From an uncultured Christensenellaceae bacterium (lineage in GTDB: Bacteria > Bacillota > Clostridia > Christensenellales > UBA3700), in the NCBI GenBank assembly GCA_944380275.1, contig CALWHB010000003.1:12901-76900 (forward strand): a stretch of DNA of 64,000 nt. The letters run 5' to 3'. The position numbers and the translations under genes were made by a program. The notes beneath the pieces were generated by a model. That model did not search any database. It saw only the letters and a list, made by a program, of their open reading frames with translations, and had not been told where the DNA came from. This document shows positions 10,490-32,250 of this stretch, in pieces. How positions within the stretch are numbered: position 1 is the stretch's first letter; each line of letters opens with the position of its first letter.

Positions 10490-10526
10490 AAAAAATACCT
10501 CCCCGTCAGGAGAGGTATTTTTATTT
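10490..10526. terminator. Bidirectional rho-independent terminator
   Basis: AAAAAATACCTCCCCgtcaGGAGAGGTATTTTTATTTTT between the convergent GH36 gene (+) and the giant operon (-). Confidence 0.75.
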
Positions 10527-13500: not shown

Positions 13501-16500
13501 GGTTACTGCGTTTTCAAGTACAGAATTTCCTCCCCCTGCTATTTCATAATTCAGATTGTCTGCAAGGATTACGTTTATCGTATATTCCCCGGCATTTCTG
13601 ACAAAATTGACTTTTTTATCTCCGGAATAATATTCTATGTTGAGATAATTTTCAAGTCCGACGTAAGCGTCGAGTTTGTTTCCTATAATCATATCAAGCG
13701 AGTAACTCTGATTTGTCGCGTTATACTCAAACGTGCCTCCTCCGAAATCAGAAGTTATCTTCTCAATCTGTTTTTTATTTACGGTAACGGTTACCGTTAC
13801 GGGGTCAGCGGTATAATTGTTGCCCTCATACGAAACGACAATTGTATATTTTCCCGCGTTCCATGTGTCGTCCCAGTTTACAACGGTTCCCGTAATTGAC
13901 GTATCGTCGCCTGCATACGCTTTGATAACGATTTTGCCTTCGTCCGGTTCAAATCCTATCGTGGCAATTGTCGCGTCGATAGCAGTCTTTTCATCTCCGT
14001 AAGCATAAACGTATTCGTTCTGCGTTACGGCAATCTGTGTGGGCGCAGGCAGGATTGTCAGCGTTGCGGTATAAGACTGCGCTACATAATTTGCCGCATC
14101 TTCACCCTCAACGGAAAGCACTTTGACGTAAGTCCCTGCGTTTCTAATCTCAGAGTTGTCAAATACTATTTCCAGGATATCCTCGTTGATTACTCCTTCT
14201 ATTCTCGCCGTCGGGGTCCAGGTTTCGGCATTGTAAACGACGCTGTTGCCGGTTTCAAGAGAATCTCCCGACTGCCATCCCTCAAAGAACACGGTAACCG
14301 CTTTGGGGGAAACAAACAGCCTTGACGTATCCGCAAAAGATATATCATAATTAGTTCCCGGCTGTGCGCTTACGAGAGTAGCAGAAAAATCTACGTAATC
14401 CGAAAGATTGTATCCCTCCTCGTTTACGGTGAGTCTGTCGAGAGAGGTAACGCCTTCTTTGTAGACTCCGATGATATTGTTGAGAGTATCGCCGTAAATA
14501 AGACTTCCGCCTGATATGCTGCCGGTAAACGTCGGGAGCGAACTTGCGCCGTAAGTAACGCTGATGTCATCCACGGTAACCGTAATAGAACGCTTTGTAA
14601 CCGTAAGTTTACCGCTTTCCGAAGTCGTATTCACAGTATAGTTCTGATTATCCGCACTGACGGTAATATCATAACTTCCCACGACGAGTATGCCGCTCTG
14701 AACAGAGAAGTTCACCTTGAGCTGAGCAGCGTTCTCATAATCGTTCCATACCGTAACCCCGTCATCGCTGTATACTGTATAGTCGCTGAACAACACTTCT
14801 TCTCCGTAAACAGAAGATACGTCGCCTGCTTTGATGTATATGGTTTTTCTCACCACGTTAAGAACGCCCGGTATTACGTTGAACGTATAATTTGCCGTGT
14901 TTCCGTCAGTTACCGCAACGACCTCGCCGTAAAGCGGATAGCTGCCTACCGTTGAATAACGCTCTGCATTGGTAAAATAATTTATCTGCAATTCTATTGC
15001 GTTGTCGTCAGAGGTATATTTTGCGTTTCCGAGAGAAATTTCGTCGCCGTAAACTATTTTTACCTCACTGCCGTCCAGCGTTACGTTTACCGCCTTTGGA
15101 GTAATCGTGAAATAAAGCGCCCTTGTAACATAATTGTCGTCAGCACCGAATACGTATCTGAACATTGCCATATAATCGCCTGCGTCCGAAGGTCTTCCCG
15201 TGAGCTGATTGTCATACTCTCCGCTCTCGCTCTTTGAATACCATACAACCTCATCCACGTTCTCCTCTTCGTTGCCGCCGTAACTGCCCTTTGCAACAAT
15301 TTCGGGCGACTGTCCGAAGACGTAAGACGCAATCGTCGTCTGCTCTCCGTTCACCGTAATAGTAATGCTTGCGTCAAGTACGTTTACGATAATCGTAACG
15401 GGTTCAAACACGTAATTGTCAGAGTCGATGTTACCGACGGTAACTGTCGTCTTGAACACTGCCTTTCCGTCTGCAAAACTGAGCGTATCTGATTCAACGT
15501 CTGCAACGAAAGTCTGATGATTCAGACTGGAATTGTCATAAACGCCTGTATCGTCAACAAGCAGCAAATCTATCGACGGCAGGTAGTCCGCTATCGTCGT
15601 AACGGGAATTTCATCCTGCTTTATTACCGTAACGAACTGAGTATCCGAGCCGATAAGTGTAAGCGTGTATTTTTCTATACTGAACGAAACGGTTTTCTGA
15701 GCCGACTCATAGTTGGAGCTTGCCGCAACAGAAACTGTAAACGTGTACAGTCCCGCGTTGACTGCGGTATTATCAATCGCTTTATCGCCCTCCACCGTGA
15801 ACGTAACCTCGCCGTAAGCATCGTTTTCAATCTGCGTACCTATGCTGTATGACGGGGTCTGAGCCTTTCCGGAATAGACGAGGCTCTGATTGTCCTCGAC
15901 ATCAATTGTCAGCTGGGCTTTCTGTACGGTAAGAAGATAGGGAACTTCACAAGCGTTGTAGTTGTTTGTTCCTGCAAATACCAGCGTAATTTCATAATTT
16001 GTCGCACCTTTTATTTCGGCACTCTGATTTACCGTTACATAATTTCTGAGAGAAGACGCGTCTGCCATACCGGGAGCGGAAATGCTGTATTCCGCCTCTC
16101 TCTCAAGACCGTTGTATACGATGCTCTGTACGGGCGTTATAACAACGTCGGCTTTATTGACGGTAAACTGCGTCGTCGCCGTCGCCTGCTTATACGCACT
16201 TCCCTCTGCAACGGTTATTTCAACCTCGTAAACGTCTGCGTTTACAGGGCTTTCAACAGATTTGTTATAAGTTATCACGACGTCGCCGGTAAGGTCTGCC
16301 ATATTTTCTTCCTGCGCAACGCCTACGAGCGTATAAACTATGTTCTTCGGTGTGCCGTCATAAACTGCCTCTACGCTATCGAATCTGATTTCCGCAATCT
16401 CTGCTTTTTCGATTGTGAAAGTTCCGTTGACGATATTTCCCACTTTATAGTTGGAATTGGCAAATGCTGCCGTTGCGACATAATCCGCAGGCATAATCGC

Positions 16501-19500
16501 CTCTGCTCCGCCATTGTAACTCATTTCGACAGCCGCATCTTCGCCGTCAAGCACTCCTGCGGTTCCGTCCTGAGTCTGCAAAGCGAAATCAAGCACTTTG
16601 TTAGTATTGTCGTAAATAAGACTTTCTGCGAGCGTAAGCGTAACGTCTACCGACCTCTGCTCTATCACAAGTCCCGTCGTTCCGTCGACGTAAAGTTCGC
16701 TGCCGTTTACTATTATTCTGCCTATCTTGTATTTGCCCGTTTCAGGAGTTATTTTTATAAGATAGTTGCCCGCGTTGACTACGTTCTGATATATCTGCCC
16801 GTCTTTTTCGTACTCAAGCGTGTACACCTTGTCTACGCCTATACGCACGTTTTCGTCAAGCGTCATCTGCGCGTTGTGAGCATAAGTGCCGTCGTATATG
16901 CCGCCCGTCGCGCTGAGCGTACCGTTGATTTCGCGTTCGTTTATTTTCAGATTGCCTGAACTTACGGCAAAATCATAGTCGTTTGCAATAACCTGAGCAG
17001 CCCCTTCTACAAGAGCCGATTCAACCGTTGTCGGGTAATTCCCCGCAACGGTAAGCGCGTTGACGTCGGGATTTTCCGTCTTTACAGTAAAGACAAAACT
17101 GTCTTTATCATTTCCTACCCAGCTGCCGCTTGCCGTAACTACCGCAGAATTAAGAACCTCTGCCGGGTCATTGCCATATGTGGATTCAACCGTTCCGGCA
17201 GAAAGCTGTATAGATACTTTACTTATAGTAAAATCCGTTACGTTGATGGGCAGACTTATATTGTCCGTAAGTACGTTTTCTGCACTTCCGCCGTAAGTTA
17301 CCTTCGCAGTAGCCGTATAATTGCCGGCGTGATACGGCAGATTGGAATAGAACATGTCGTCAGACGGCGCGCTGTAAGAAACCACAACACCGAAAGACGA
17401 CGGATTGCAAAGTTCGTTTCCTTGCAGGAACCCGTCAAATCTCGCTGTTACACTCTTTGGCGAACCGTCGTATTTCAAGCCATCGGTTCCTTCCCATACA
17501 AGAGTCGCCTGGAAGGGATTTACCGTGATTGTCTTTGAAGTATAACTTTCCTTGACTGCGCAGTAGTAATATGAGCCGTCCTTTTCTATAAATTTTTTCT
17601 GAAGATTAGACGGTTTGTTGTATGTAAGCGTATAATTTCCGCTGTCGCCCGAACCTTCAAATTTATATCCGCTGACGGCATAGCTCTTTTCACTCGCGTT
17701 GGTAATCGTGCTTGAAGAAGAAAGCGTAAAGTTGGACGCTCCGCCAATTATTCCTTCAAGTTCGCTTGCGCTGAAATTGACCTTATTGCCCGTACCGTAA
17801 TCAGAATCGTAACCCACGAACGCAGGAACGTAAAGATAATTGCCGTTGTACGTGTAGGAATAGGCACTACCGCTGCCGGTATAACCGTCGTCGTATCTGT
17901 CTGTGCCGTCATATGCCTTTGACATATCAAAGTCCATATACAGATATGAACCGTATATTGCTGAAACGCTGAAGGCAGTCGCATCGTTGCCTGTGGGATT
18001 GGACGAGGTGAACGTGGACGTACCAATCTTGTTGGCAGTCGCTCCTATATCGGGATTAACGGTAGAATCGTATCCGGTATACATTGCCGGAACGTAAACG
18101 CTGCCGTTGCCGAAATTGTTATATGTTTTAGTATATATAGAATACAAATCGTAAGCGGTGTCCGACCCCTGCTTTATCTGATACACAAAGTTCTTCTCGC
18201 TCTGATTAGAAACCTTATAATACATACCTCTTATATTGTTTGCGTCGTCTGCAGTGGTATTTTCGTTGTATGAATATGAACCGTCCATAGCGGTATTGCG
18301 CGCAAATATAAACTCGTTGCCAAGCGTCGAAGCGTCAACGAGAGTGTAAGTCCAGTTCCACCTTATCCAACTGTTTTTAGCCTCGTCTATTCCTGCAATC
18401 TCATGTATCGCAAACGGATGATGAGTCTTAATCGTCTGCGCCATAGCTGAAGTCATATAAACGTTGTTGAGCACGACTGTCTTTCCCCTGTACATCGCGC
18501 CTATACCGTAAGAATCTCTCATTTCGCTCGCGTTTGTATAGGAAGAAGTATTCTTGTCGCCGTAGTCGTGGTCGATAGAGTCCGTAGCGGTAGAACAAGC
18601 CCAGTTCGCTACGCCGCCCGTCGAAAGGTAATTGGATTTTACCGCGCCACCAGATTTTGTCAGGTTGATATAGACACCGTTTACTTCGAGCCCAGCATTA
18701 GCAGCCTTTGACAGCCAGCCCACGAGACCACCTGTTAAAACTGTTGCATAGCCGTTTTTTTGAACTACCCCTGCCCAGTTTTTACTACTATATGTGTGTG
18801 CCTCAGATTCAAGCGAACCGCTTCCGAGAAGAGAAATTTTTCTGAGATAGACCCTTCCGTTTCCGATTTGTCCAACAAAACCTCCTGTATTTATCATAAG
18901 TCTGTTAGAATTCGAGCTGTTCTGCTGACCGACGTTGATAAGAGTGCCGTTGTAAGTCACGTTGGTATAAGATATGACGCCGCCGGTTGCAAACGCTGTA
19001 ACGCCGCCGAAGATGTTCGCCATATTATCGCCGCCCCACGCGTTTCCTTCATTTCCTACCGCAGCGGCGTTATTCTGCAACCTGAGATTACCTGTATAAG
19101 TAACTGTACAATTGTGAATAAGACCGCCAGACATTCCGCCCGCTATACCGCCTATTCTTGCCATATATGCGCTTTCCCCGTCAGGCTGATTGGATTTTCC
19201 CGCATTGCCGGTATTGAATCCGAACAATGAGCCGCCGCTCGCAGCGTTGATTACGACGTTGAGATCCTTTATCGTACCGGTAAGATATTTGACGAGAAAA
19301 CCGTACGTTCCGTCTCCGTTCTGAAAATTGTATACCGCGTTTGAAGGCATATTGATTGTTACAGTGTGTCCGTTGCCGTACAGCACGCCGCCGAAAGTAC
19401 CGTTTGCAGCCGCTGACGTATTTCCCGTCGATGCCGTATACGATATATCCCCCGTGAGATAATGCTTTCCGTTGCCTTTCAAAGCACTATCCAACGAAGA

Positions 19501-19782
19501 CGCATTAGTAACGGGCGACGCACCTGAAACGACGTTGTTCGTAATAAAATCGTCATTGTCGATTTCACCCGGTTTAAGCACGCTGGACGTTACGTCAAGC
19601 TTTGAATACATCTCGTCGTCCGTCGTGATTTCACTTGTTGCCAGAACGTTCTGAACATTTCCCGTTTCTGTCAAAGTCTGAATTTTTTCAGGCATTGATA
19701 TCACAGAAACCGCAATGAACGCAATCAACAATATTGTCGCTACGATGGCTGAATAAACCAAATTCTTCTTTGTCTTACTCAT
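10564..19782 (-). CDS. Giant membrane-anchored surface protein (3,072 aa): GLUG-like region, MBG-domain repeat array, FN3, coiled coil, C-terminal TM anchor
   Basis: N-terminal signal/anchor is LVYSAIVATILLIAFIAVSVISMP. GLUG-like repeats: IGGIAGGMSGGLIHNCTVTY, TGGFVGQIGNGRV, TGGLVGWLSKA. Many MBG-type units: ...YDGTPK..., TYGASSLPTFTGSISGGSLIYGDTL...NYDISF. FN3: PVIKEIKTSYNTATIILE...SATSNYSIYVAY. C-terminus is AAVIAVCCVCGVLILASVAGVIVAAVIKKRKR with no LPXTG. SD GGAGAGAGGA. Confidence 0.85.
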   Translation of the reverse strand: MSKTKKNLVYSAIVATILLIAFIAVSVISMPEKIQTLTETGNVQNVLATSEITTDDEMYSKLDVTSSVLKPGEIDNDDFITNNVVSGASPVTNASSLDSALKGNGKHYLTGDISYTASTGNTSAAANGTFGGVLYGNGHTVTINMPSNAVYNFQNGDGTYGFLVKYLTGTIKDLNVVINAASGGSLFGFNTGNAGKSNQPDGESAYMARIGGIAGGMSGGLIHNCTVTYTGNLRLQNNAAAVGNEGNAWGGDNMANIFGGVTAFATGGVISYTNVTYNGTLINVGQQNSSNSNRLMINTGGFVGQIGNGRVYLRKISLLGSGSLESEAHTYSSKNWAGVVQKNGYATVLTGGLVGWLSKAANAGLEVNGVYINLTKSGGAVKSNYLSTGGVANWACSTATDSIDHDYGDKNTSSYTNASEMRDSYGIGAMYRGKTVVLNNVYMTSAMAQTIKTHHPFAIHEIAGIDEAKNSWIRWNWTYTLVDASTLGNEFIFARNTAMDGSYSYNENTTADDANNIRGMYYKVSNQSEKNFVYQIKQGSDTAYDLYSIYTKTYNNFGNGSVYVPAMYTGYDSTVNPDIGATANKIGTSTFTSSNPTGNDATAFSVSAIYGSYLYMDFDMSKAYDGTDRYDDGYTGSGSAYSYTYNGNYLYVPAFVGYDSDYGTGNKVNFSASELEGIIGGASNFTLSSSSTITNASEKSYAVSGYKFEGSGDSGNYTLTYNKPSNLQKKFIEKDGSYYYCAVKESYTSKTITVNPFQATLVWEGTDGLKYDGSPKSVTARFDGFLQGNELCNPSSFGVVVSYSAPSDDMFYSNLPYHAGNYTATAKVTYGGSAENVLTDNISLPINVTDFTISKVSIQLSAGTVESTYGNDPAEVLNSAVVTASGSWVGNDKDSFVFTVKTENPDVNALTVAGNYPTTVESALVEGAAQVIANDYDFAVSSGNLKINEREINGTLSATGGIYDGTYAHNAQMTLDENVRIGVDKVYTLEYEKDGQIYQNVVNAGNYLIKITPETGKYKIGRIIVNGSELYVDGTTGLVIEQRSVDVTLTLAESLIYDNTNKVLDFALQTQDGTAGVLDGEDAAVEMSYNGGAEAIMPADYVATAAFANSNYKVGNIVNGTFTIEKAEIAEIRFDSVEAVYDGTPKNIVYTLVGVAQEENMADLTGDVVITYNKSVESPVNADVYEVEITVAEGSAYKQATATTQFTVNKADVVITPVQSIVYNGLEREAEYSISAPGMADASSLRNYVTVNQSAEIKGATNYEITLVFAGTNNYNACEVPYLLTVQKAQLTIDVEDNQSLVYSGKAQTPSYSIGTQIENDAYGEVTFTVEGDKAIDNTAVNAGLYTFTVSVAASSNYESAQKTVSFSIEKYTLTLIGSDTQFVTVIKQDEIPVTTIADYLPSIDLLLVDDTGVYDNSSLNHQTFVADVESDTLSFADGKAVFKTTVTVGNIDSDNYVFEPVTIIVNVLDASITITVNGEQTTIASYVFGQSPEIVAKGSYGGNEEENVDEVVWYSKSESGEYDNQLTGRPSDAGDYMAMFRYVFGADDNYVTRALYFTITPKAVNVTLDGSEVKIVYGDEISLGNAKYTSDDNAIELQINYFTNAERYSTVGSYPLYGEVVAVTDGNTANYTFNVIPGVLNVVRKTIYIKAGDVSSVYGEEVLFSDYTVYSDDGVTVWNDYENAAQLKVNFSVQSGILVVGSYDITVSADNQNYTVNTTSESGKLTVTKRSITVTVDDISVTYGASSLPTFTGSISGGSLIYGDTLNNIIGVYKEGVTSLDRLTVNEEGYNLSDYVDFSATLVSAQPGTNYDISFADTSRLFVSPKAVTVFFEGWQSGDSLETGNSVVYNAETWTPTARIEGVINEDILEIVFDNSEIRNAGTYVKVLSVEGEDAANYVAQSYTATLTILPAPTQIAVTQNEYVYAYGDEKTAIDATIATIGFEPDEGKIVIKAYAGDDTSITGTVVNWDDTWNAGKYTIVVSYEGNNYTADPVTVTVTVNKKQIEKITSDFGGGTFEYNATNQSYSLDMIIGNKLDAYVGLENYLNIEYYSGDKKVNFVRNAGEYTINVILADNLNYEIAGGGNSVLENAVTVSVTKAPSTYLSYTLTSTNRLYDGTDMTDYVKSSVAILGMGNEAVTDATVNVTFTDESGTPVDAPINSGVYKVTVSVSDMANYENPVSGTLLADTFTIDKIFVRVDAVSMDNMTFTYDSTLKTIVISGLVQNAVLEGIGYEYCLKSSGEMVSYEGVVNAGEYSVRATVLFDKKNTQVSDESLVSEYTPLGEDTSYYALVLEADITVNKATPVLTSDPGSRSYYFDGKSHTIDFVIEGIGSDAQYSFSYNADVAALDDITIEGLGTFSVAYYTDSAYTNKLTDSDGNAILPVTVRKEAGKTSPYYLMVTFTPENENYASATYKNTKQELALLILPMTITFEFDSLSVPYGVFGNATDANEYVSYNMTYDYYVNEVSGAAQGDYDPANMVDFAYNIVDFDRSAGSYAITVSALAKDNFVDSCAITVVNANEVRFVITPVSVTDDIKAKFTALSSNYGDKVWTKENAVWQVSGIFGETVDYVVTYKDSEDFAISDAGEYSLKVSIPEGNYKAWSGYVSLSVAKVGLDVVWTLDGEEPVEGVLTKTYDGKPAGIVLLVEGAEGVTAICEYVNSEGGVIDAPYAVGTHMAKAVLSDDNYFVNDDCAYVTVVIEAVVLDEEKIREWISDDSDVYGSVQGIDITGLPEGYGATSIVYTNGTDVYDMSTIKNAKAGVYTATVTVSNVSSSGSATFTYTVEKLKVVFTASATVGFGVRPAAANVTIKANKNLASGDTAKVSSVTLKDGYSEQLAFGVYQMKDYFTSVNVEFNRNADCYEYTVEMGSFSVEPESAPVIKEIKTSYNTATIILEKEGVYAYRIGLRGSWVEMSNASDTIIVTGLSATSNYSIYVAYAGFTSKTSMKAVTTTADPDVLSQMISNIKEGGLSVEKQEAYDEILAYYENIAEEDRSEIQAEYDALVAQFNALLNGDNGSGEGNKDGEINAAVIAVCCVCGVLILASVAGVIVAAVIKKRKRNAVHDNDGFLA
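11160..17540 (-). repeat. Protein-level array of roughly two dozen diverged MBG (YGX/YDG-type) domains
   Basis: A unit of ~75-95 aa recurs, with Y-[DG]-G-[TS]-x-[KP] near its start, a G-x-Y motif in its middle and N-Y near its end. The copies are diverged, and I saw no long identical DNA repeats by eye. Confidence 0.6.
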
Positions 19783-19798: not shown

Positions 19799-22700
19799 TT
19801 ATCTGATTTCTACCGCATATGCCTGCAAGAAGGTACCGTTCAGTCCTTCGAAAGCAGCTATTTTTCCGTATTCTTCGTATATAGCGAGGTCAAAACCGAT
19901 GTATACGAACGCTTTGTCCTGCAACTGAGTTACCGCAACGGGCATTTTTAACTGCAGCCCGTTTTCAAACACGACCGTTGCCGACGTGTATGTTTCTCCC
20001 GCGACGACATAATTCTGAGTCATTGCGTCGTCGAAGTAAACTGCTTTTATTACGTTTCTGTTTACCGTAACGGTAACGTCCCCGTCCTCATAGAACCAAC
20101 CTGCGCCTTCGTATTTCGACTCGTCCGTCCTTACCGTCGCGTCGAATACGCTGCCTGAATTGTATCCCCAGTCCGGATTGCCGCTTACGATAGTCTTAAC
20201 GTCAATCGTTTCTGTCTTCCCGTCTGTATACGTCGCCGTCGCCTTTGACGGGAAAGGATTGTATTTCTCGTCGCCGGTCGACAGATACAGATAATACATA
20301 TACGGGTCGATACTCAGCACGCCGCTTTCCTTCTGCCCCTCGTAAACGAGAGCGTTTCTGCTTTTTGCGTCAAGACTCAGCCTGAGCGTAACAGTCTGTT
20401 TCAGAGCATTTTCAACAGGCTCCAAGGTTACGCCGTCAGCCGCAATTTTCTTGTCTATCGTAAACGTTACGTCAACAGTCGCCGCAGACAAATCAGTCCT
20501 CGGTCGCGATATAAGTGCGTCAAGCGCGCTCATATCCCAGGTTATCCCCTCTGTCAGCAGTTCAGGTATAAACGTACCGTCAGCATAATAGAGGTTGAAT
20601 CTGCCTATAAGCTGGTCGATTATAGACTCTTTTCCGGCATCCGTTCCTCCGTCCTTGAAGTCGAGGTCGTACCAGGAAATATTCACTGTCTGGTCAAAAA
20701 CCGTACTGTCGTAATAGTTGACGGTTACCGGATATCTCGAACCGTTCGCAAAAGTAAGATAAGCCGTCTTGCTGCCGCCTTTCACGCTGTCGGCTCCCGC
20801 GCCTGTAAGCGTTACCGAAACCCCGTCGGTAAAGTACTTGACTTTCTCCCCTGAATACGTCGTTACCGTGATGTAATCGGGCAAGGATTCGTAAACGTGC
20901 AGATTAATCGGGTCCACCGTTCTCACACAGTCCGCGCCTCCGCTCGCAACGTTCTTAACTTTAAACGTTATGTTCATTGAACTTGCCGTGCCGTCGCTGT
21001 AATTTGCGGTCGCTTTTATCGTATGCGTGCCTGCGCTGTTCATAATGCTCTTAAGCACGTCTTTCGTAAACGCATTTCCGTTGTAAGTCAGAGAAATGCT
21101 GCCTCTCTTGACAGACGTGCCTTTCTGATATACAGCCGTGCCGTAATCACTGAAGTATCTTGTCCAGTATTCGTCCACAGCCGCCTGATACCCGTTGTTC
21201 GAAGAGTACATATAGGGATTGAAGGTGATGTTCTGCGAGAGATTGCCCCAGTCTACGACTCCTTCTGTACCGCTCAGCGTATAGGAAGAATCTCCTACCG
21301 CTCCCGACTTGTTGTAAATCTGGATTTCGTTGCCGAAACGGTAGTTGTTCGTGCGGAATCCCTCTGTGGAGTAATAGCTGAATCCGCTACGCCACATCCT
21401 GCCCTTACCGCCGTAATAACAATCGTTGTAAGAGCCGTATTCATAACTGTAAGAATATACATTAAGATTGTCGGGTCCGCTGTCGACTACATTGAACAGC
21501 GTCCTTACCGTCTGTGTCAGTACCTTGCCGGTATTCTGCCACTCACCCGTATTTTCGTCGAGGGTATACTGCTCTACCTTAGCACCGGTATCCGTACCGG
21601 TAAAGGATACGTTTGCAAGCGTTCCTTCGATAAAGTTGACGTTGATTTCAGCCTCGTTGTAAACCGCAAACGGCAACAATCTCTTGACTATTCTGTGCAG
21701 GTTCTGCGCCGTACGGTCGTATTTTACTACACCGCTGACAGCAGACAGTGCGCCGTTGATTCCGCTAAGAGCGTCGTCTACGATGTGCGGCAGCTGTCTG
21801 ATGATGCTGTCCCATACGCTGTAAGGAGTAGTGTCGGGGGATACCGCGCTTACGGTGTTGGACGCCGCAACGCGGTCCCACCACATATAAGCAAGATAGT
21901 TCTTGTTGAATCTGATATTGCCCAGCTGGAGAGTCGTCATATCGATAATCGTATCCGCGCCGAATATACAGTTCATCACGCCGTCAATCATCTTATTCAG
22001 CTCATACGGGTCGAGTTTTACGTTTATGTTACCGACTCCCGTCGACAGGAGGTTTATAGTAATACCCGGACGGAGCAAAGCCTCCAGGTTGAGGTCTGCA
22101 AACACTTTCGCTATTCCCGTCACCTCTTCTTCAGTTCCTGTATCCTGCGAAGGAGCAGAAGGCTCTGACGGAGTTTCTTCCTGCCCTAAGTTGTTTGCTG
22201 CGTCGTAAACTTGCTTTATAAGATTTTCTACGGTAGGAGCAAGCATACCGAGGATATCGAGGTCAAGCGAGATACCTGAACTAAGATAAGACGCTATGTC
22301 AATCTGTATGAGTCCTATCAGTCCGCCCACGACCGTGAAATATCCGTTGCCAAGATATATCGTTGCTTTGCCGTTTGCATAATCCAGATAGAAGTGCAAC
22401 ATCGCCTTCTTGCTGCCCGTACCGTGAGTATAATATTCAGACTCGTCTATATCGTAAACCGAAAGCAACATCGCGCTGTGTCCTATCGCGCCCACGGTCG
22501 CGCCGCAGTTGTCAAGCGTTACCGGTCCGTTTATCTTGTTGAGTTCAAGCCTTGTGTACTGGTTGTCAGGCTCGCTGCTGTCAACTACCGTACCAACGGT
22601 GTTTGTCTTTAAGTCGAGAGCGAGTGCAAGTTCAAACCCGTCGAGGAACTGCTTGACTACCTGTCCTCCGTCCACTTCTTCAGAAGTCGTATCAAGAGTT

Positions 22701-25700
22701 ACAAACTTGCTCGTGTCTTCGGGTTTGTATCTGTCGGGTTTGCCGTTGAATCCGAGGGTGAGAGCTATCGTTGCGTCGCTGCCCATGTTGATGTATGCCT
22801 CTATCTGCTCTCCGGCAAGGTCGATGCCAAGTCCAGCCTCAAGTACGAAATCTATATCAAATCCCAGCGCACGGAAAATCTGACTCATAACGTCGCTGGT
22901 TATGTCTGCCACAACCTTGCTGTCTGTAATCTTAATTGCAGAAAGCAGATATCTGATTATGTCATTGCTGCCCACCGCGAGCGTTCCCGTTTCTCCGCCC
23001 TCTGCAAACATCGCCGCGCTTTCTGCCGCGTTCTCAGCCTCAGCCGCAATATCCTTGCCGTAGAACAAATCGTTGAGAATATCCGATATGATAATGGGAT
23101 TTATTCCCGCCAGCGTTTCGTCAAGCAAATTGAACAGTACCGGTACAAGCGGAGAACCTGCAACGTGTATGTCGACAAGTCCCAGACCTCCCAAAGCTAT
23201 ATACAGGTCTTCCCAGTCACCGTAAATTCCCAATACAGTCTTGTTGTTCACCGTACCGTGCATAACGATTTCAAGCATAAGCTGGCGGGTTTCAATATTC
23301 CAGTTGAGCAGCACTTCGAGGTCGTAATACAGCTCGTCGAATTCAATCTGCACGGGTATGTTCAGATTTACACCGAGTTTTTGCAGCAACCCTGAAATAA
23401 GACTGTTTATATCCACTTCGCTCGACTCTGCGTCCACGGTAAGATTGGCTTTTATCGAATTGTTGCCCAGCGTCTGTTTGAGCGTTGCAATCAAATCGTC
23501 GTTGTAATCCTTATAATTCTCTGCCTTGCTCCTTAGATAACTGTCGAGAGCAGCGACGTCTATACCGAACTCAAGCGCATCGGAAGGTATTTCAATCGTC
23601 AAATCCAACGCGTTGCGTTCTCCGTCCGTCGTGGGCAGCAATACTCCTCCGACGGATATCGACAATCCGTTGCCCAGTCTTATGCCTGCGTTAAGGTCGA
23701 AAGCAGACAAGTCTATACCAAGGTCGACTCCCATATCGCCGAGAACGGCAATTATCGCGCCGAGAGCAGCGGTTACGGCTATCTCGTTCTCGCTTATTCC
23801 CACAACTATTTCGCCGTGTTCGTCATCAAGCGGCGTCATCACGGTACTTTCTCCCGTTTCACTTGTAACAACCGCAACGGGCTGACTCTGCTCTTCTGCA
23901 GTATTGCCAAGCTGATTAAGCTTTGCAACCACAGCACCGAGAAGGTCGAAATCCACCTTGAATACAGGGAACGTGATGCCCAGGAGCTTTATTCCGCTCG
24001 CATCGATATAGAGCGTGTCGTCGTATGCGTAAAGTCCTATCAGCACGCTGCCTGCCTTAACAAGGTTGCTCGCGCCCAGATTGAGGTCTTTTTCAGCGAC
24101 GATTTCAATGCTTGCCATGCCGTTTCTGCCGCCGGCGGTTCCGTCATCGGAATATGCCTTAAGGCTTACCTTGAGGGCAAGTTCTATATCCGTATCTTCG
24201 TTAAACGTCCACAAAAGCTGCGTGCCTTCAAGCGCGCTTACACCGAATTTTGCCAGCAGCTCCGCCACGTTGTAAGTTCCTTTCTTAAAAGAAACCGAGA
24301 GATTAAGCTTGAAGTTTATATCCGCAAGATTGTCGATAACGTCGCGTATGACAGTACCCGTATCCGTCGCGTCTATTTCGTAATGGTCATACAGGAATAT
24401 AGCGGGTATGTAAGCATCTGAAACAATCATACCGTTGCTGAGTGCCGCGTTTACGCTCATTGAAATAAGAGCGTCCTCTTTCTCTCCGAACAGCGTCGCA
24501 TCGAACGCAACGGTTCCCGAAAGAATTCCCAGATTTGCACTGAGGTCGAAAAGGTCAGAACCGAGGTCTATCTGCTTGCCTGTCAGAGCAAATATGATTT
24601 CCTGCAAAAGCTGAGTGGACAGAGCGAGTTTTATGTTGGTATTCTCAAGCAATACTACGCCGAGCAGCTGTGCTATCCATGCGTTTTCCCCGCCGGATGC
24701 TCCGCTCTCTCCTTCTGTTTCGCCGTCCGTTTCTCCTTCTGTAGCGTCAAGAACTACTGCCTTTTCCTCCGCTCCCGAAGAATTCCCGAAGAGATTTCCC
24801 AGAATTTCGTTGAGGTCGAGTCCCTGCAAGCTGTCGATGGCACCGGTGAGCGTTTCGCTCAGTTGTTCTATCAATCCGACGTTGCTCACCTTTACGCTGA
24901 ACAGTCCTACGCCCGACAAGTCTGCCACAAGTTCTCCTCCGTACAGATATACTCCGACAAGTATGTTGCCGGCATTTCTGACCTCAAACATCATCGTCAG
25001 AGTTTTGGTTACGGAGTTAAGGTTCCATTGCAGAGCAAGCTGCAACTGTTTATTGAAATCGCCGGTTTCTACGGCTATCGGCACGCTTATACCGTTTCCT
25101 CCCGTCGCAACGGAAATTATGTTGTTGACAAGTTCGTTCAGATAATATTTGCCCGCATTGAAATCTACGTTGAGGTCTATCAGCATCGAACCGGTAAACA
25201 GATTATCCGCAATTCCCTTGAGTATGTCAGAATACGTCTTGTCGTATCCGCTGATTCTGCCGCCCACGTAATCGTTGAGGGTTTCGTAAAGAGTCTTGTC
25301 GCCTGCTGCGATATCCGCAGTGGACGCCTTAAGACTGAGCGCAAAGTCGGACGGTTCTCCGCTCACCGTCTGCATAACGTTTCCTTCAACGTCAAGGCTG
25401 AAGGTGTACACACCTTTACCCTGAGAATCGTCGCGTACAAGACTTATCTCTGCATTGATTCCTCCCAAAGCAGACAGTATCTTGTCTGCTGTCGCCGCAG
25501 AATCTCCCGTAAGGAAGTTCGCAAGCAACGCGCCTATCGCGCTCATAGTCGCTGAAAGTTGCAACTTGTTACGCGCAATTATCAGAGAAATGTTGCCGCC
25601 GTCGCCGCCAGCAAGCGCGAGTGCCTGAGCCTGTGAACCGTTTCCGCTCTGCTCTCCGTTCGCAAACAGTCCAGAAATAGCAGATTCAACCGTATTGTAG

Positions 25701-28700
25701 AGGAAGGACGGCAGGTCGAAATTGTCAACCTTGAATACGGGAAGATTAAGTCCCAGCACCTCAAGTGCGGTTGCATCTATATAAAGACTTCCGTCCTTTA
25801 TATAAACCGCAAGCAATGCCTCTCCTGCAGGTATCACCGTAATGCCTTCGCCTCCGCCTACCGTCGTACCCAACGACAGCGGCTGATTTGCGACGATTTC
25901 AAGAGCCATTACGCCATCGACAATGCCACCTGACTGACGTATCGCGCTGTTGAATCTGATTGAAAGGTCTATGGTGGGCTGTCCGAAAGATACGACAAGC
26001 GACGCATCTGAGGGAAGTCCCAGCGTCGTGAGGTCGACGAATTTGCCCACGAGTCCGAGTATATTGTACTCTCCCGGTGTAAAGTCGAGAGTAACGTCCG
26101 CTTTAAGAGAAATACCTTCAAGAAGACCCGTAACGTATTGTTGTAAATCCTCTTCTGACGTGAATACGAGTACCCCTTCAGCGTCCACATAACGGGTATA
26201 TTCGCTTGTCAGAGCGGAAAGCGACCAGCCTTCCATATATCCGAAGTATTCGCCGTAAGCACTGAGTCCTTTTACAAGGTAAGCCCTGAGGTCTTCGATA
26301 TCGTTCTGTCCGTCAGGGACAAAACCGTCGTCACCGTACGCCCTGAGCAGGTCGAGTGCAAAACCGTAATCTATGCTTTCGTCATCCGTTCTGCCTATAG
26401 CAAGTCCTATACCAAGCGACAATGCGCCGCCGATATCCGCAATGACGTCGACTTTTCCTTCAGTTACGTCAATCGCTCCCGATACGGATACGAAATCCAC
26501 GTCTATTCCCAGCGAAGACAATATGGTCGCTATCATCTCGCGCGTGATATCAATATTAATTAAAGCGTCGCAAGCAGAAATTCCTCCCAGCAAGGATATA
26601 ATGTCTATCGCCGTACCGCTTTGCTCTCCGCCATCGCCCGTTCCGGGTTCAGCGGGAGTTTCATCGGTCGTTCCGTCAGGTGTTTCCTCAGGCGTATCGG
26701 CAGGATTGAGCAGATTCTCGAACAGTGTGTTCAAATCAGCGTTCTCTATTCCGTCTACAGCCTTATTGACAGCGTCTTCGATAATCTTTATGATGCCCGT
26801 GTCGCGCAACAGGAAACTGCCGAAGTCCATTACCGTAACCACTATCGTTTCGCCGCAGGCGCGCGCACTCAGCAGAACGTTGCCGTCGCCTTCCGTAAGT
26901 ACTACGGCATATTCTCCTCTCTCTGCATTGAGTGCAACGAGAAGACCGACTTTTCCGCCGGTAATTTCAACGTCTATGTCGGTATCCGGCAGCCACTTCT
27001 CTACAAATTGCTCCACAAACTCGCTGAGAGCCGCCTGGTCTTTTGAGTCAACTTCGATTTCTGCACTCAGCGACATCTTGCCTACGGTGCCGAGAAGTGC
27101 TTTTATTACGTTCGACTGTGCGTCCGCAAGATTTGCCGTTTCCGCCTTGATTTCTTGTTCTATTTCGTCCGAAAGTCCGCTGACTCCGGTCTTGAAACCC
27201 TCCTTTCCGACAGTTATTCCCAATCCGAGTCCCATAGCATCGTATCCTTCGCTTGCCGCTACGGACGCATTTGCACCTATATTCAGACCGTTGCCGTCAA
27301 GCGACGCGTCAAGAACCACATTAAGTCCTTCTGGCAACGCAAACTGCACCCCGAAGGCGTTCAGTACGGACGCCACCGCGGCAAGTGTCAGTTTTGCCCT
27401 GAAGGAATCGGAATTTATTATTATCTCGCTCGCCTCGGCTGTGATTTCTGAATTCATACTGAGAGGCGTCGCACTGCCGTCAGCGTTCAGCCTTGAAAGA
27501 GTCTGCTCTTCGCCCGTGCCGAAAAGTCCCGAAACGTCGAATTTGAGTTGTATATCCAACGTCTTCATCAGGTTATCTATTACGGACGAAAGGTCTATTT
27601 CCGCCTTAAATGCAGGCAGATTCACGCCGAAAAGACTAATGCCAGAAAGGTCCGCGTATCCCGTACCGTCCTCTGACAGATACACTGCTATCAGTTTGCC
27701 TGCAGGCAGTATTTTGTCCGCACCCAGATTGAAATCTTCTTCAAGCGTAATCACGACGCTCGCGTTTATTTTATTCGTCGCCGCGTCGAGAGCCGCTTTC
27801 ACGGTAAGTCTTGCCTTTACTGCGCTGTCGGCGGTTACCGTCCACGGAGTAACGACGCCTCCGGCGTTTTCAACCCCGAACAAAGACACGAGGTCCATTA
27901 TATTGTATTTGCCTTGTGAAAGCGTAAGATTTATTCCTGTATCGACATATACGCCGGAAAGTACAGAACCTACCAGTTCTTTTACCGAATAAGTATATTT
28001 GCTTTCGTCGCCGACCTGCGCGTCAACGTAATCCGAAATATCCTCGTATCCTTCAAATTCAGGCGATTTACCTATGCTGAAACTGTCAAAACAAAGCGAC
28101 GCTTTTATTCCGCCCGCGAGATTTGCGTCCGCGTCTATTTGAGCAAGCCCGTCTGCGTTGAGTTTGATTCCCAGATTTATTGCGCCGAATTCAGGCACTT
28201 TTACAGACGTCTGCCCTATTGCATTGAGGAACGCAGACAAAAACTCGTCGTCCACTTTGAAATTGAGTATGCTGTATTTACCGTCCTCATCGGTGCCGTC
28301 AGTAACGCTGACTTTGCTGCCGTCAACGCCGAAAACTCCCACGAGAACTTTTATAAAGTTCAATGCTCCGCCTGAAACATAATAATTGCCCTCACTGCCA
28401 GAAAGCGCGACGACTCCGTTTTTGTCCAACTTCGCATTGCCGTTGAGAGCGCGTCCTTCGGTAAAGAAAACGCTGTCAATCGCATCTGTAACTACGTTTT
28501 TGACCTGGGAAATAAGTTCTTTGAGGTCGACTCCTATCTTTACTCCCTTTCCGCCGTAAATACCGCCCAGAGTCTTAGCTATGTCGACGTAAAGATTGCC
28601 TTCTTTGTAATATGCACCGATAAACGGAACAAGCGTGCCGTCCTCTTTCTTTTCGTAAAGTTCCAGCACTATATAGTTTTCGTCGCCCTCTCCTTTCTGC

Positions 28701-29944
28701 GCTATGTCGAGCGATGTCCTGAGATTGAGTCTGTAATCGAGTCCCGAAGAAAGAACCAAAGCCCCTTCTGCAAATGCCTGTTTGCCCGTAATCGCGTTGA
28801 GCAGCGCGCCGAGGTCTGCATTTGTGTTGTTAACAGAAAGGTCCACGCCGAGGTCTATATTGCCGAGAGAAATCTGCTGATAACCGACAAGTTCTGACGG
28901 CGCGACGATTTCTACTTCTCCTTCCTTGTAAAAACCTGCTCTCGTGGTTGAAAATTCAAAATATTGCGCCCCTTCGTACTGCGCATCCGACGTTACGGAG
29001 CTGAGCTTGCCCGTCGTATTGTCAAGTGCGACGTTGAGGTTTATCTTCATATCGGGAAGTATTCCCTTGAACCAGTCTATAAAACCGGAAGTCTTTATGT
29101 TGAGTCCCGCGCCTTGGAGAATAGAATCGAGATTGATTAGATTGAGAAGGCTCACTATACCCTGCAAGCCCTTGGGATTGATTTCTATGCGATAAACGGT
29201 GTTGTTGCCTTCTATCTGGGCAGATGTAGTGGTGAACATCGTAAACAACATACCCAGTATGGTATCCATGTCCATACCCACGATGTCAAGACCGCCGAGA
29301 AGGTTGCCGAGAACTTCAGGCACTCTGTCCGCCACCTGAAGTATGTAGTTCATATCGAAGTCTTCAAGCGCGACGCCGCCCATATCCGGGGACCAGACGT
29401 AAAAGACGCCGTCCATCACGTACACGCCTACCGCCTTATTTCCGTTGCCGTCTGAAAACTCTATTGCGAGAGTGTACTTTTCTTCGCTTGTTACGTTTGC
29501 CTTAAGTGCGATTCCCGTAACGTTGCCGTCAGCATCCTTACCGCTGCCCTCAAAAGCGAAACTCAATGCGCCTTCCTTCTGGAATCCGGCTATGATTGCC
29601 TTGAGAGCGTTCAGCGTCGTTACCGCCGACGACTCAAGCCACAAAGCTTTGAGCGATAAGCTCTCTGTTGGAGTAATAATCCCGCTGTAAGTATTCTTAC
29701 CGTCTGACCAGCCGGCAAAAACGTAACCTTTCTTTGTGGGAATATACAAACTGAGGTCGATTTCCTGCCCCGCCGTCATATTGACGTTGTAGCCGGTTTC
29801 TCCTCCCAGTTCGCCTCCGTCAAAGTCAAACGTAACGTTTACATATTTCGTCTTGTTGTCGCAAGCTGCAAGTCCTGCGGAAAGTACAAAGACGAGTATG
29901 AACGCAAGTATGACCAACGTCGTTGATTTTTTGAACCTGCTCAT
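19799..29944 (-). CDS. Giant surface lipoprotein (3,381 aa): Listeria-Bacteroides repeat, nine copies of an unassigned ~290-aa module, C-terminal Big_4-like Ig domains
   Basis: Start moved from GTG 29953 to ATG 29944 (SD AGAGGTGA). Lipobox is FVLSAGLAAC-DNK. Flg_new-type repeat: YVNVTFDFDGGELGG...KKGYVFAGWSDG. C-terminal units of the type LPDYITVTTYSGEKVKYF and PFPSKATATYTDGKTETIDVKTI. The stop lies 16 nt before the next ATG. Confidence 0.85.
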   Translation of the reverse strand: MSRFKKSTTLVILAFILVFVLSAGLAACDNKTKYVNVTFDFDGGELGGETGYNVNMTAGQEIDLSLYIPTKKGYVFAGWSDGKNTYSGIITPTESLSLKALWLESSAVTTLNALKAIIAGFQKEGALSFAFEGSGKDADGNVTGIALKANVTSEEKYTLAIEFSDGNGNKAVGVYVMDGVFYVWSPDMGGVALEDFDMNYILQVADRVPEVLGNLLGGLDIVGMDMDTILGMLFTMFTTTSAQIEGNNTVYRIEINPKGLQGIVSLLNLINLDSILQGAGLNIKTSGFIDWFKGILPDMKINLNVALDNTTGKLSSVTSDAQYEGAQYFEFSTTRAGFYKEGEVEIVAPSELVGYQQISLGNIDLGVDLSVNNTNADLGALLNAITGKQAFAEGALVLSSGLDYRLNLRTSLDIAQKGEGDENYIVLELYEKKEDGTLVPFIGAYYKEGNLYVDIAKTLGGIYGGKGVKIGVDLKELISQVKNVVTDAIDSVFFTEGRALNGNAKLDKNGVVALSGSEGNYYVSGGALNFIKVLVGVFGVDGSKVSVTDGTDEDGKYSILNFKVDDEFLSAFLNAIGQTSVKVPEFGAINLGIKLNADGLAQIDADANLAGGIKASLCFDSFSIGKSPEFEGYEDISDYVDAQVGDESKYTYSVKELVGSVLSGVYVDTGINLTLSQGKYNIMDLVSLFGVENAGGVVTPWTVTADSAVKARLTVKAALDAATNKINASVVITLEEDFNLGADKILPAGKLIAVYLSEDGTGYADLSGISLFGVNLPAFKAEIDLSSVIDNLMKTLDIQLKFDVSGLFGTGEEQTLSRLNADGSATPLSMNSEITAEASEIIINSDSFRAKLTLAAVASVLNAFGVQFALPEGLNVVLDASLDGNGLNIGANASVAASEGYDAMGLGLGITVGKEGFKTGVSGLSDEIEQEIKAETANLADAQSNVIKALLGTVGKMSLSAEIEVDSKDQAALSEFVEQFVEKWLPDTDIDVEITGGKVGLLVALNAERGEYAVVLTEGDGNVLLSARACGETIVVTVMDFGSFLLRDTGIIKIIEDAVNKAVDGIENADLNTLFENLLNPADTPEETPDGTTDETPAEPGTGDGGEQSGTAIDIISLLGGISACDALINIDITREMIATILSSLGIDVDFVSVSGAIDVTEGKVDVIADIGGALSLGIGLAIGRTDDESIDYGFALDLLRAYGDDGFVPDGQNDIEDLRAYLVKGLSAYGEYFGYMEGWSLSALTSEYTRYVDAEGVLVFTSEEDLQQYVTGLLEGISLKADVTLDFTPGEYNILGLVGKFVDLTTLGLPSDASLVVSFGQPTIDLSIRFNSAIRQSGGIVDGVMALEIVANQPLSLGTTVGGGEGITVIPAGEALLAVYIKDGSLYIDATALEVLGLNLPVFKVDNFDLPSFLYNTVESAISGLFANGEQSGNGSQAQALALAGGDGGNISLIIARNKLQLSATMSAIGALLANFLTGDSAATADKILSALGGINAEISLVRDDSQGKGVYTFSLDVEGNVMQTVSGEPSDFALSLKASTADIAAGDKTLYETLNDYVGGRISGYDKTYSDILKGIADNLFTGSMLIDLNVDFNAGKYYLNELVNNIISVATGGNGISVPIAVETGDFNKQLQLALQWNLNSVTKTLTMMFEVRNAGNILVGVYLYGGELVADLSGVGLFSVKVSNVGLIEQLSETLTGAIDSLQGLDLNEILGNLFGNSSGAEEKAVVLDATEGETDGETEGESGASGGENAWIAQLLGVVLLENTNIKLALSTQLLQEIIFALTGKQIDLGSDLFDLSANLGILSGTVAFDATLFGEKEDALISMSVNAALSNGMIVSDAYIPAIFLYDHYEIDATDTGTVIRDVIDNLADINFKLNLSVSFKKGTYNVAELLAKFGVSALEGTQLLWTFNEDTDIELALKVSLKAYSDDGTAGGRNGMASIEIVAEKDLNLGASNLVKAGSVLIGLYAYDDTLYIDASGIKLLGITFPVFKVDFDLLGAVVAKLNQLGNTAEEQSQPVAVVTSETGESTVMTPLDDEHGEIVVGISENEIAVTAALGAIIAVLGDMGVDLGIDLSAFDLNAGIRLGNGLSISVGGVLLPTTDGERNALDLTIEIPSDALEFGIDVAALDSYLRSKAENYKDYNDDLIATLKQTLGNNSIKANLTVDAESSEVDINSLISGLLQKLGVNLNIPVQIEFDELYYDLEVLLNWNIETRQLMLEIVMHGTVNNKTVLGIYGDWEDLYIALGGLGLVDIHVAGSPLVPVLFNLLDETLAGINPIIISDILNDLFYGKDIAAEAENAAESAAMFAEGGETGTLAVGSNDIIRYLLSAIKITDSKVVADITSDVMSQIFRALGFDIDFVLEAGLGIDLAGEQIEAYINMGSDATIALTLGFNGKPDRYKPEDTSKFVTLDTTSEEVDGGQVVKQFLDGFELALALDLKTNTVGTVVDSSEPDNQYTRLELNKINGPVTLDNCGATVGAIGHSAMLLSVYDIDESEYYTHGTGSKKAMLHFYLDYANGKATIYLGNGYFTVVGGLIGLIQIDIASYLSSGISLDLDILGMLAPTVENLIKQVYDAANNLGQEETPSEPSAPSQDTGTEEEVTGIAKVFADLNLEALLRPGITINLLSTGVGNINVKLDPYELNKMIDGVMNCIFGADTIIDMTTLQLGNIRFNKNYLAYMWWDRVAASNTVSAVSPDTTPYSVWDSIIRQLPHIVDDALSGINGALSAVSGVVKYDRTAQNLHRIVKRLLPFAVYNEAEINVNFIEGTLANVSFTGTDTGAKVEQYTLDENTGEWQNTGKVLTQTVRTLFNVVDSGPDNLNVYSYSYEYGSYNDCYYGGKGRMWRSGFSYYSTEGFRTNNYRFGNEIQIYNKSGAVGDSSYTLSGTEGVVDWGNLSQNITFNPYMYSSNNGYQAAVDEYWTRYFSDYGTAVYQKGTSVKRGSISLTYNGNAFTKDVLKSIMNSAGTHTIKATANYSDGTASSMNITFKVKNVASGGADCVRTVDPINLHVYESLPDYITVTTYSGEKVKYFTDGVSVTLTGAGADSVKGGSKTAYLTFANGSRYPVTVNYYDSTVFDQTVNISWYDLDFKDGGTDAGKESIIDQLIGRFNLYYADGTFIPELLTEGITWDMSALDALISRPRTDLSAATVDVTFTIDKKIAADGVTLEPVENALKQTVTLRLSLDAKSRNALVYEGQKESGVLSIDPYMYYLYLSTGDEKYNPFPSKATATYTDGKTETIDVKTIVSGNPDWGYNSGSVFDATVRTDESKYEGAGWFYEDGDVTVTVNRNVIKAVYFDDAMTQNYVVAGETYTSATVVFENGLQLKMPVAVTQLQDKAFVYIGFDLAIYEEYGKIAAFEGLNGTFLQAYAVEIR
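22300..29435 (-). repeat. Nine diverged copies of a 270-345 aa protein module of unknown family, alternating between A and B subtypes
   Basis: Core motifs sit at ~29391, 28590, 27645, 26810, 25775, 24925, 23995, 23200 and 22350. Examples: LLAVYIKDGSLYIDATALEVLGLNLPVFKVDNFD, LIGLYAYDDTLYIDASGIKLLGITFPVFKVDFD, LIAVYLSEDGTGYADLSGISLFGVNLPAFKAEID. Confidence 0.6.
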
Positions 29945-30756
29945 AGTTCTCACCTCTCACATAACGGTTATGCCACTCAGTAGCGCAACGCACACGCGTA
30001 CGGATACGCGTATATTCACATATATATAAATTGTAACACAAGGTTTGTATTATTTCAAACATATTTATCTACTTGAATAAGCGTTTATTTAACGATTCAA
30101 CACAAAATATTCCAAAAAATATACATCTTTTAGGAATTTACATTATAGTTTATGTGATAAAAACTTTATATTTTGTCCATATTAAAATCCGTATTTTATA
30201 TAAGGATATTTTTATTAAAGCAATCAAACAACGATGATTTTTGCATGCAAAAGCAAAAAAAAACAACTTTTTACCGCTCTTTATTCTGAGTATTTTCTCA
30301 TACGCACGCCCGCGATAACCGTAAGTGTTTATTTAATTTTCACAAAAATTCTATATCTTTTTTTCGATTTATTTTTTGAATATTATGTATTTTATGTTGC
30401 ATAATATTTCATTTGTAAAATTTTTACTGTTTACATATTTTTAAATCGGAAATCAAATGCATGCTTAAGAATTATTGTATTGTCTACTTTCTCGATATCA
30501 TATCGCCAAATTCCGGTACTGCCGTTTTCCAGTCAGACCTGACTCTTTTCTCTTTAATCTGCCGCTACAGTTATAATATGATGCATTTTAATTCATTTTA
30601 AGCCTCGTTTGTGCCTTAATTTTTAGTTTGCCTTTTACTTGCCGCCGTGTATTTCACCGTTTTAAATTATTCCGGTCCGGTAAACAAATAATTTTACATG
30701 TCGCTCGTACCCATGATTTTTATAATTCTTATTCTCTCCGTCTAAAATTTTTTTAT

Positions 30757-30797
30757 AAAAAAGGCTTATGCCGATTTCTCCGCATAAGCCTTTTTTA
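30757..30797 (-). terminator. Rho-independent terminator of the CoA-transferase gene
   Basis: AAGGCTTATGC-cgatttctcc-GCATAAGCCTT flanked by A- and T-runs, 20 nt past the stop. Confidence 0.8.
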
Positions 30798-30815
30798 TTA
30801 TCGCATTTTATTTTT

Positions 30816-32126: not shown

Positions 32127-32218
32127 CTCATATCCCCCGATGTATATCTGTTTATTCCATTTTGCATTATACGGCATTTATTATCAACTGTTTTTTACGA
32201 CAAATACCGAAATACTAC

Positions 32219-32250
32219 AAAAAGCTCCCCAAACGTAAAGTTTGAGGAGC
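32219..32250 (-). terminator. Rho-independent terminator of degV
   Basis: Minus strand reads GCTCCTCAAAC-tttac-GTTTGGGGAGC-TTTTT. Confidence 0.7.

Follow-up and report, generated by a model that had tools for sequence, protein, structure and literature searches.

What does a bacterium do with a giant surface protein that consists mostly of one repeat of no recognisable family? The question is raised by a lipoprotein gene in a 64,000-nucleotide stretch of DNA from an uncultured Christensenellaceae bacterium (NCBI GenBank assembly GCA_944380275.1, contig CALWHB010000003.1, positions 12,901 to 76,900 of the forward strand). We call this whole stretch the window and count all coordinates from its first letter. 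A first reading of the letters without database searches (the sequence-only reading) had described nine diverged copies of a module of ~290 amino acids (aa) in the encoded protein. We found that the repeat is real and fills most of the protein, about 2,450 of its 3,381 residues. Profile and structure searches delimit the module well as a domain family; it is absent from Pfam and NCBIfam, and no structural relative was detected. Giant repetitive surface proteins are a known kind of protein; the new part is the repeat module and its place in a conserved cassette of two giant genes. We put at about one in two the probability that the module array serves as a jointed stalk, or spacer, within an apparatus for adhesion or aggregation at the cell surface.

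The gene lies on the minus strand:

19799..29944, minus strand: giant lipoprotein gene, 3,381 aa from the ATG at 29944; the listed open reading frame (ORF), 19799..29953, opens at a GTG.

The true start is likely the ATG at 29944 rather than the GTG at 29953. Residue numbers throughout are counted from the GTG, and subtracting 3 gives the position in the 3,381-aa protein. This product is 100% identical to a public metagenome protein (P0001), and we found 27 full-length orthologues with 49-70% identity and lengths of 3,363-3,400 aa; these close relatives belong to genomes of uncultured Christensenellaceae/Christensenella.

All nine hydrophobic core motif strings reported, one for each copy, were found within a few bases of the coordinates given for them, starting at aa 176, 445, 754, 1035, 1380, 1665, 1971, 2240 and 2518, with a spacing of 269-345 aa. 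When the protein was compared by BLAST in chunks with a masked copy of itself, it aligned with stretches ~600 and ~1210 aa away, at E values down to 1e-16 (a direct self-BLAST returned the identity match alone). In profile comparisons with hhalign on the alignment of the 27 orthologues, pairs of copies of one subtype, A, matched at E 1e-16 to 1e-22 and pairs of the other, B, at 6e-9 to 2e-12. The self-BLAST and hhalign signals are far beyond chance, and the internal periodicity claimed for the protein is significant. On the same alignment A and B appear weakly related (best probability 92%, E 8e-7). With a deeper profile, built on a 45-row alignment (A5) that takes in paralogous units and distant homologues, core A matches core B at a probability of 98.5% and E 1.7e-15. 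Because the ~150-aa cores align at this level, profile comparison identifies the two subtypes as homologous.

Each module of ~290 aa (about 270-345 aa) pairs a conserved core of ~150 aa with a more variable spacer of ~130 aa on its C-terminal side. The copies share ~20-25% identity at the protein level, and the residues best conserved between them are Gly, Tyr, Pro, Leu and one Asp. We also considered whether the two spacer halves are clearly homologous and rejected this; their alignment is limited to a strand-helix motif of 25 residues (E 4.6e-4, probability 33%). The supported cores are listed here with their independent E values (iE) from core hidden Markov models (HMMs) and, where they fall within a model, the predicted local distance difference test score (pLDDT) of the AlphaFold2 structures described below:

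29243..29512, minus strand: core copy 1, partial (C-terminal half of the core), aa 148-237; B-core HMM iE 6.7e-7, hhalign 88%, E 3e-6.
28469..28873, minus strand: core copy 2, aa 361-495; B-core HMM iE 1e-8, A-core HMM 5e-5, hhalign 96%, E 8e-9.
27515..27982, minus strand: core copy 3, type A, aa 658-813; A-core HMM iE 3.5e-49.
26705..27103, minus strand: core copy 4, type B, aa 951-1083; B-core HMM iE 8.5e-31.
25664..26140, minus strand: core copy 5, type A, aa 1272-1430; A-core HMM iE 7e-42, pLDDT 75-93 in model 2.
24785..25219, minus strand: core copy 6, type B, aa 1579-1723; B-core HMM iE 2e-46, pLDDT 61-86 in model 2.
23909..24334, minus strand: core copy 7, type A, aa 1874-2015; A-core HMM iE 5e-51.
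23063..23485, minus strand: core copy 8, type B, aa 2157-2297; B-core HMM iE 2.4e-43.
22190..22951, minus strand: terminal short unit, aa 2335-2588; its first ~70 aa resemble the start of a unit, and it holds a possible ninth core without statistical support.

In the terminal unit, aa 2330-2401 match positions 6-68 of the unit HMM (iE 2.4e-5), which is the start of a unit, and two short motifs follow at plausible spacing, with the reported core motif at aa 2518-2539. A ninth core at aa ~2400-2600 is not significant by core HMM (E 0.03-0.16) or by hhalign (0.07-0.13), and we rejected it as a significant copy. By these statistics the copy count is eight supported and one possible, so that the count of nine stands for eight copies and is one too high as a statistical statement.

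Copies 3-8 strictly alternate between A and B and form three clean supermodules of ~600 aa with acidic linkers between them, while copies 1 and 2 both score nearer B. The alternation proposed in the sequence-only reading, and the supermodule with it, therefore holds for copies 3-8 and fails for the first two copies. The subtype motifs that it had listed are present: G-[KET]-Y-N-[IV]-x-x-L three times and LP-x-FK twice for A, and L-x-W-N-[LI] twice for B. The three acidic linkers that had been noted lie where they were placed, and we add a fourth, weaker one at aa 2313-2334:

26621..26704, minus strand: acidic Thr/Glu/Pro/Gly linker 1, aa 1084-1111; isoelectric point 4.05, grand average of hydropathy (GRAVY) -1.6, pLDDT <50 in model 1.
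24689..24769, minus strand: acidic linker 2, aa 1729-1755; by composition, pLDDT 24-29 in model 1.
22952..23017, minus strand: weaker Ala/Glu-rich linker 3, aa 2313-2334; by sequence and composition.
22118..22189, minus strand: acidic linker 4, aa 2589-2612; by sequence and composition.

The linkers divide the array into five units, U1 (aa 105-519), U2 (520-1083), U3 (1112-1728), U4 (1756-2312) and U5 (2335-2588). The units are hydrophobic, with GRAVY values of +0.22 to +0.33 and only ~4.5-6.4% Lys+Arg.

To ask whether the module belongs to a described family, we scanned Pfam-A 2025 and NCBIfam 2026 with the whole protein and with each of 45 unit sequences singly, and found no family for the array or for any unit. 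At E <= 1 the array returned only sub-threshold matches to single copies (DUF6547 at 0.047, DUF4899 at 0.16). The sole family match in the entire protein is a Listeria-Bacteroides repeat near the N-terminus, outside the repeat array. In sequence-profile searches of the PDB, the deepest alignment (A5) had no match at E <= 10, and alignments A1 and A2 and the C-terminal region gave a best E of 0.39 and nothing meaningful. Our literature searches found no earlier description of the giant protein or of the module.

We predicted the structure of the array with AlphaFold2 in two models. Model 1 covers aa 1105-2304 (1,200 aa), was built on orthologues only and is poor, with a mean pLDDT of 50. Model 2 covers one supermodule, aa 1112-1728, and was built on the 45-row alignment; it reached a mean pLDDT of 68.8 and a predicted template modelling score of 0.56, the two cores lie in the ranges listed above and the first 100 residues are poorly determined. 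In model 2 the two cores share one layout: a long strand leads into two short helices, after which come six or seven more strands and, at the C-terminal end, a long helix. The predicted core sheet is amphipathic and antiparallel, has 7-8 strands and includes a hairpin of 12-15 residues; its strands alternate hydrophobic residues, as for a sheet with one covered face, and the core motif of the sequence-only reading corresponds to the last hairpin and the final strand. The spacer is predicted to fold as a helix plus a beta-meander, and about one third of the residues in model 2 are helical. The unit is therefore not simply beta-rich, as had been guessed; in the model it is alpha/beta. The second guess, that units stack into a continuous fibre or a long groove, is unlikely, since the array is interrupted by linkers that are acidic and disordered and by loops of low confidence. 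At the confidence of these models, beads on a string would be the better picture.

When we searched with model 2 against the PDB using Foldseek, we found no match at E <= 1e-3 and none reaching a template modelling (TM) score of 0.4. Against BFVD, a set of viral structures, the single match at E <= 1e-3 (E 5.9e-4) has a TM score of at most 0.10, and nothing was meaningful. The least-bad match is 4xrw, a di-domain SRPBCC aromatase/cyclase (BexL), with E 3.3e-3, probability 0.25 and TM 0.06-0.10. The LolA structure 9azz_C has a probability of 0.93 with E 0.027 and a TM score of 0.36 by target and 0.13 by query, below any accepted threshold. LppX (2byo, E 0.16) and RseB were in the weaker list of a search with the poor model 1, which was uninformative. 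Neither the profile searches (Pfam, NCBIfam, PDB) nor Foldseek made a confident assignment, in agreement with the claim that the module matches no known family.

A unit profile searched against 1.84 billion representative proteins matched just 76 clusters at E <= 1e-3, and 47 of them reach <= 1e-30. With few exceptions these are giant proteins of Clostridia; every full-length member is 2,000-7,800 aa long, the shorter matches are probably gene fragments, and named distant members are annotated "hypothetical protein [Clostridia bacterium]". The scan that had been proposed for the taxonomic range of the module thus delimits a small family, nearly all of it giant proteins of Clostridia. The number of cores per protein varies from 2 to 13 across the family, in patterns such as AB, BAB, ABABAB, AABABAB… and BAAAAAAAAAB, and most listed patterns end in a B copy; the lipoprotein N-terminus and a C-terminal region of ~770 aa do not change with it. 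This range clearly indicates that the module duplicates on its own, as an independent unit of about 270-290 aa. Two distant homologues, P0031 (5,393 aa) and P0032 (7,116 aa), have 12-13 cores, and by eye they carry FN3-like stretches between units.

The two ends of the protein flank the array as follows:

29861..29944, minus strand: signal peptide and lipobox L-A-A-C in the translation (the Cys is ORF residue 31).
29651..29839, minus strand: Listeria-Bacteroides repeat (Flg_new), aa 39-101; Pfam PF09479 E 8.8e-7, TIGR02543 E 5e-4.
19802..22117, minus strand: constant C-terminal region, 772 aa; no family assignment, conserved across the family.

The N-terminus, MSRFKK...LSAGLAAC, follows the lipobox rule [LVI][ASTVI][GAS]C for bacterial lipoproteins, and the L, A and C positions of the lipobox are nearly invariant across 28 orthologues. 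The distant homologue P0031 also begins with a lipoprotein N-terminus (lipobox LLLSAC) and a Listeria-Bacteroides repeat. By this signature the giant protein is a lipoprotein, predicted to be lipid-anchored at its N-terminus. At the other end, the C-terminal 772 aa have 25-30% identity over their full length to distant members (BLASTP) and no Pfam or PDB sequence match; relatives carry Big_4 in this region.

We found that the lipoprotein gene is followed directly by a second giant gene:

10564..19782, minus strand: partner gene, encoding a 3,072-aa protein with an N-terminal transmembrane segment, MBG-like repeats and a C-terminal transmembrane anchor.

The gap from the lipoprotein gene to the partner gene is 16 nt, with AGGAG as a ribosome-binding site inside and no terminator; we predict that the two genes are co-transcribed as an operon. 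In seven of eight related Christensenellaceae loci a partner orthologue lies directly downstream, and the eighth locus ends within the first gene. In all six loci from five distant families, one or two giant genes with an N-terminal transmembrane segment follow within 2-23 nt. These downstream giants are about 1,900-2,400 aa long where complete, and some have MBG matches. The partner protein has no significant similarity to the downstream giants of the distant loci by phmmer or tblastn. Comparison of the loci shows that a giant, membrane-anchored second gene directly downstream is the conserved partner in the predicted operon.

From these data, our favoured account of the protein is that of a stalk. 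The lipid anchor at the N-terminus would hold the protein on the cell surface, pairs of A and B modules (~600 aa) joined by acidic disordered linkers would form a long, jointed stalk, and the stalk would hold the constant C-terminal region tens of nanometres off the membrane. In adhesion at the surface, or in the aggregation of cells, the lipoprotein would have the co-transcribed giant with MBG repeats as its partner. We favour this account because an anchor, a repeat array and a constant distal region make up the architecture of a fibrillar adhesin. By definition, fibrillar adhesins and periscope proteins combine an anchor with a variable stalk of tandem repeats and a distal region that stays constant (PMC9210967, PMC8201768). 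Like known examples (SasG/Aap; Sgo_0707 with its SHIRT repeats), the protein is anchored at one end, repeats a single type of domain in a long tandem array and keeps its distal, non-repeat region constant, and repeat number differs between homologues; the anchor and the one-domain tandem stalk are represented here by the lipobox and the eight significant cores. It differs from them in its anchor, an N-terminal lipid rather than an LPXTG motif, and in its repeat, a 270-345-aa alpha/beta module of two alternating subtypes rather than a small all-beta domain.

Several observations weigh against a stalk. The units are unusually hydrophobic for one and contain few Lys+Arg, and they are alpha/beta, unlike the usual all-beta Ig-like stalk domains; both features hint at a function beyond spacing. 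Copy number is constant in the 27 close orthologues (proteins of 3,363-3,400 aa), and copy-number variation (2-13) is seen only between distant family members. The rapid length variation through near-identical DNA repeats that marks periscope proteins is not seen among the 27 orthologues, and recombination-driven length switching is unlikely because the copies are only ~20-25% identical. In the C-terminal region we identified no adhesive or binding domain by Pfam or PDB sequence searches, and relatives show Big_4 only. Finally, the three-dimensional model is of medium confidence only.

The main rival is a pocket rather than a spacer. The cores could be domains of a helix-grip (SRPBCC/Bet v 1-like) or LolA/LppX-like fold, each forming a pocket for hydrophobic ligands, and the protein a multi-site lipoprotein array that, at the cell surface, catches or shuttles lipids, sterols, bile-acid-like molecules or glycolipids. 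The helix-grip (Bet v 1/START) fold has the order beta-alpha-alpha-beta6-alpha, with the sheet wrapped round the long C-terminal helix, and the element order predicted for the ~150-aa core equals it, a comparison of general knowledge of the fold with predicted secondary structure. The predicted amphipathic sheet and long C-terminal helix are likewise shared, as is a tandem di-domain with ARO/CYC proteins such as BexL (4xrw). A pocket would also suit the amphipathic strands, the positive GRAVY and the few basic residues of the units, and Foldseek leans weakly to 4xrw (SRPBCC) and 9azz_C (LolA), with LppX and RseB weaker still from model 1. LppX/LprG-type carriers are lipoproteins too; with them and LolA the protein shares this context and, as predicted, an open sheet with helices, and LolA is the only high-probability Foldseek match (0.93). 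In contrast, the carriers are single domains of ~170-230 aa and not a giant array. Unlike SRPBCC proteins, the module has no profile match, carries an extra ~130-aa spacer per core, is predicted to be extracellular and occurs in 2-13 copies. Among the 45 unit sequences we found no Pfam match to START, Polyketide_cyc, Bet_v_1, LolA or related families, no Foldseek match reached E 1e-3 or TM 0.4, and the best-conserved residues (Gly, Tyr, Pro, Leu and one Asp) look structural and not like a ligand site. On balance we consider a pocket of these known folds possible but rather unlikely.

A bolder form of the same idea, which we consider unlikely, is that the ~150-aa cores represent a new fold with a pocket, related very remotely if at all to the helix-grip or LolA folds, and that the lipid-anchored array and its partner together form a new surface apparatus of Christensenellaceae and related Clostridia that binds or relays hydrophobic molecules. 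Lipids, sterols or bile-acid derivatives would then pass between the membrane and the environment or partner cells, and the array would be no passive stalk.

Three further explanations fare worse than these. The first has the modules stack end to end as a continuous hydrophobic groove, a lipid conduit across the envelope; the sequence-only reading had speculated on stacking into a fibre or a groove-forming structure. Bridge-like lipid transfer proteins (AsmA-like TamB/YhdP; VPS13) are likewise very long, repetitive, hydrophobic and membrane-tethered, and the length, anchor and composition of the lipoprotein recall them. However, TamB, YhdP and VPS13 form one uninterrupted beta groove, whereas here discrete alpha/beta modules, about one third helical and unlike beta-taco grooves, are interrupted by disordered acidic linkers and low-confidence loops every ~600 aa. 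We found no AsmA, DUF490 or Chorein match in Pfam, FN3-like inserts lie between units in some relatives (by eye), and a copy number of 2-13 is not tuned to a fixed envelope width; a continuous groove is highly improbable. We give equally little credit to the module being a diverged form of a described adhesin repeat (Ig-like, FN3, cadherin, Rib, MBG or beta-helix). The same protein does have a Listeria-Bacteroides repeat, and relatives have Big_4 in the C-terminal region; but the array has no above-threshold Pfam or NCBIfam match and no PDB sequence or fold match, and a module of 270-345 aa with long helices is unlike all-beta repeats of 70-110 aa. In this respect the HMM scans of the repeat region agree with the first reading, which could not match the module to MBG, Ig, FN3, cadherin, Rib or PbH1. 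Lastly, the hydrophobic composition and long amphipathic hairpins could be those of an offensive or membrane-active protein (a contact-dependent toxin, or pore-forming or membrane-inserting modules), and giant genes elsewhere are reported to be tied to inter-bacterial attack (bioRxiv 10.1101/2023.11.21.568195), but a lipid anchor ties the protein to the producer cell and neither it nor its neighbours have a toxin, immunity, secretion-system or MACPF/aerolysin-like match, which makes this very unlikely.

Christensenellaceae rank with the most heritable bacteria of the human gut and are those most consistently tied to leanness. The flocs that they form are dense and house growing methanogens (PMC7002349). 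No surface molecule is known to bring these flocs about. The two-gene cassette amounts to about 6,450 residues of predicted surface protein and is conserved across related Christensenellaceae and other Clostridia; because of this size and conservation, it is a concrete candidate for cell-cell contact. The structure of a supermodule is worth solving because no structural relative was detected. Interest in the locus would rise sharply if the cassette were behind the flocculation of Christensenella with methanogens (PMC7002349), or if the fold of the cores turned out to be new and to bind ligands.

Within the partner protein we observed a Gly-rich region with GLUG-like motifs (by eye, with no Pfam match), about 20 MBG-like repeats, for which the only match is MBG_3 (E 0.0017), and a C-terminus made up of a coiled segment, the transmembrane anchor and a KKRKR tail. 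By eye, the downstream giants of the distant loci (L009-L014) and the window partner have in common the N-terminal transmembrane segment and a motif 'I-S-N..L..F…G-Y-L-T-x-D-I'. The regulators beside the cassette vary by lineage (L009, L010/L011, L013, L012). In three families a response regulator lies just upstream, with a HisKA histidine kinase also present in two of those, and in one family a SigI/RsgI-like pair (Sigma70_r2/r4 and RsgI_M) lies about 2-5 kb upstream; the window cassette has no regulator directly upstream. Consensus scans gave two weak signals at the borders of the cassette:

30030..30058, minus strand: promoter-like site, TTGAAA, 17-nt spacer, TG-TACAAT, ~85 nt upstream of the ATG.
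10498..10513, minus strand: terminator-like hairpin and T run just past the partner gene.

The promoter-like site has 10/12 consensus matches and an extended -10 element, in a region where the number of such sites is no greater than in shuffled sequences. The G+C content is 0.38 at window positions 30001-32000, directly upstream of the giant gene, compared to 0.48-0.50 within the gene. Within the giant gene there are plus-strand ORFs of up to 539 aa (21023-22168, 23816-24421, 24863-25555 and 26373-27992), which we take to be, most likely, shadow ORFs cast by the coding strand rather than genes. Further upstream, the minus-strand genes at window positions 30816-44376 are metabolic, with no obvious link to the cassette, and include an acetyl-CoA hydrolase/transferase, DegV, two MFS_2 transporters, an FGGY kinase, two FAD oxidoreductases (one with a BFD 2Fe-2S domain) and a GH20 hexosaminidase.

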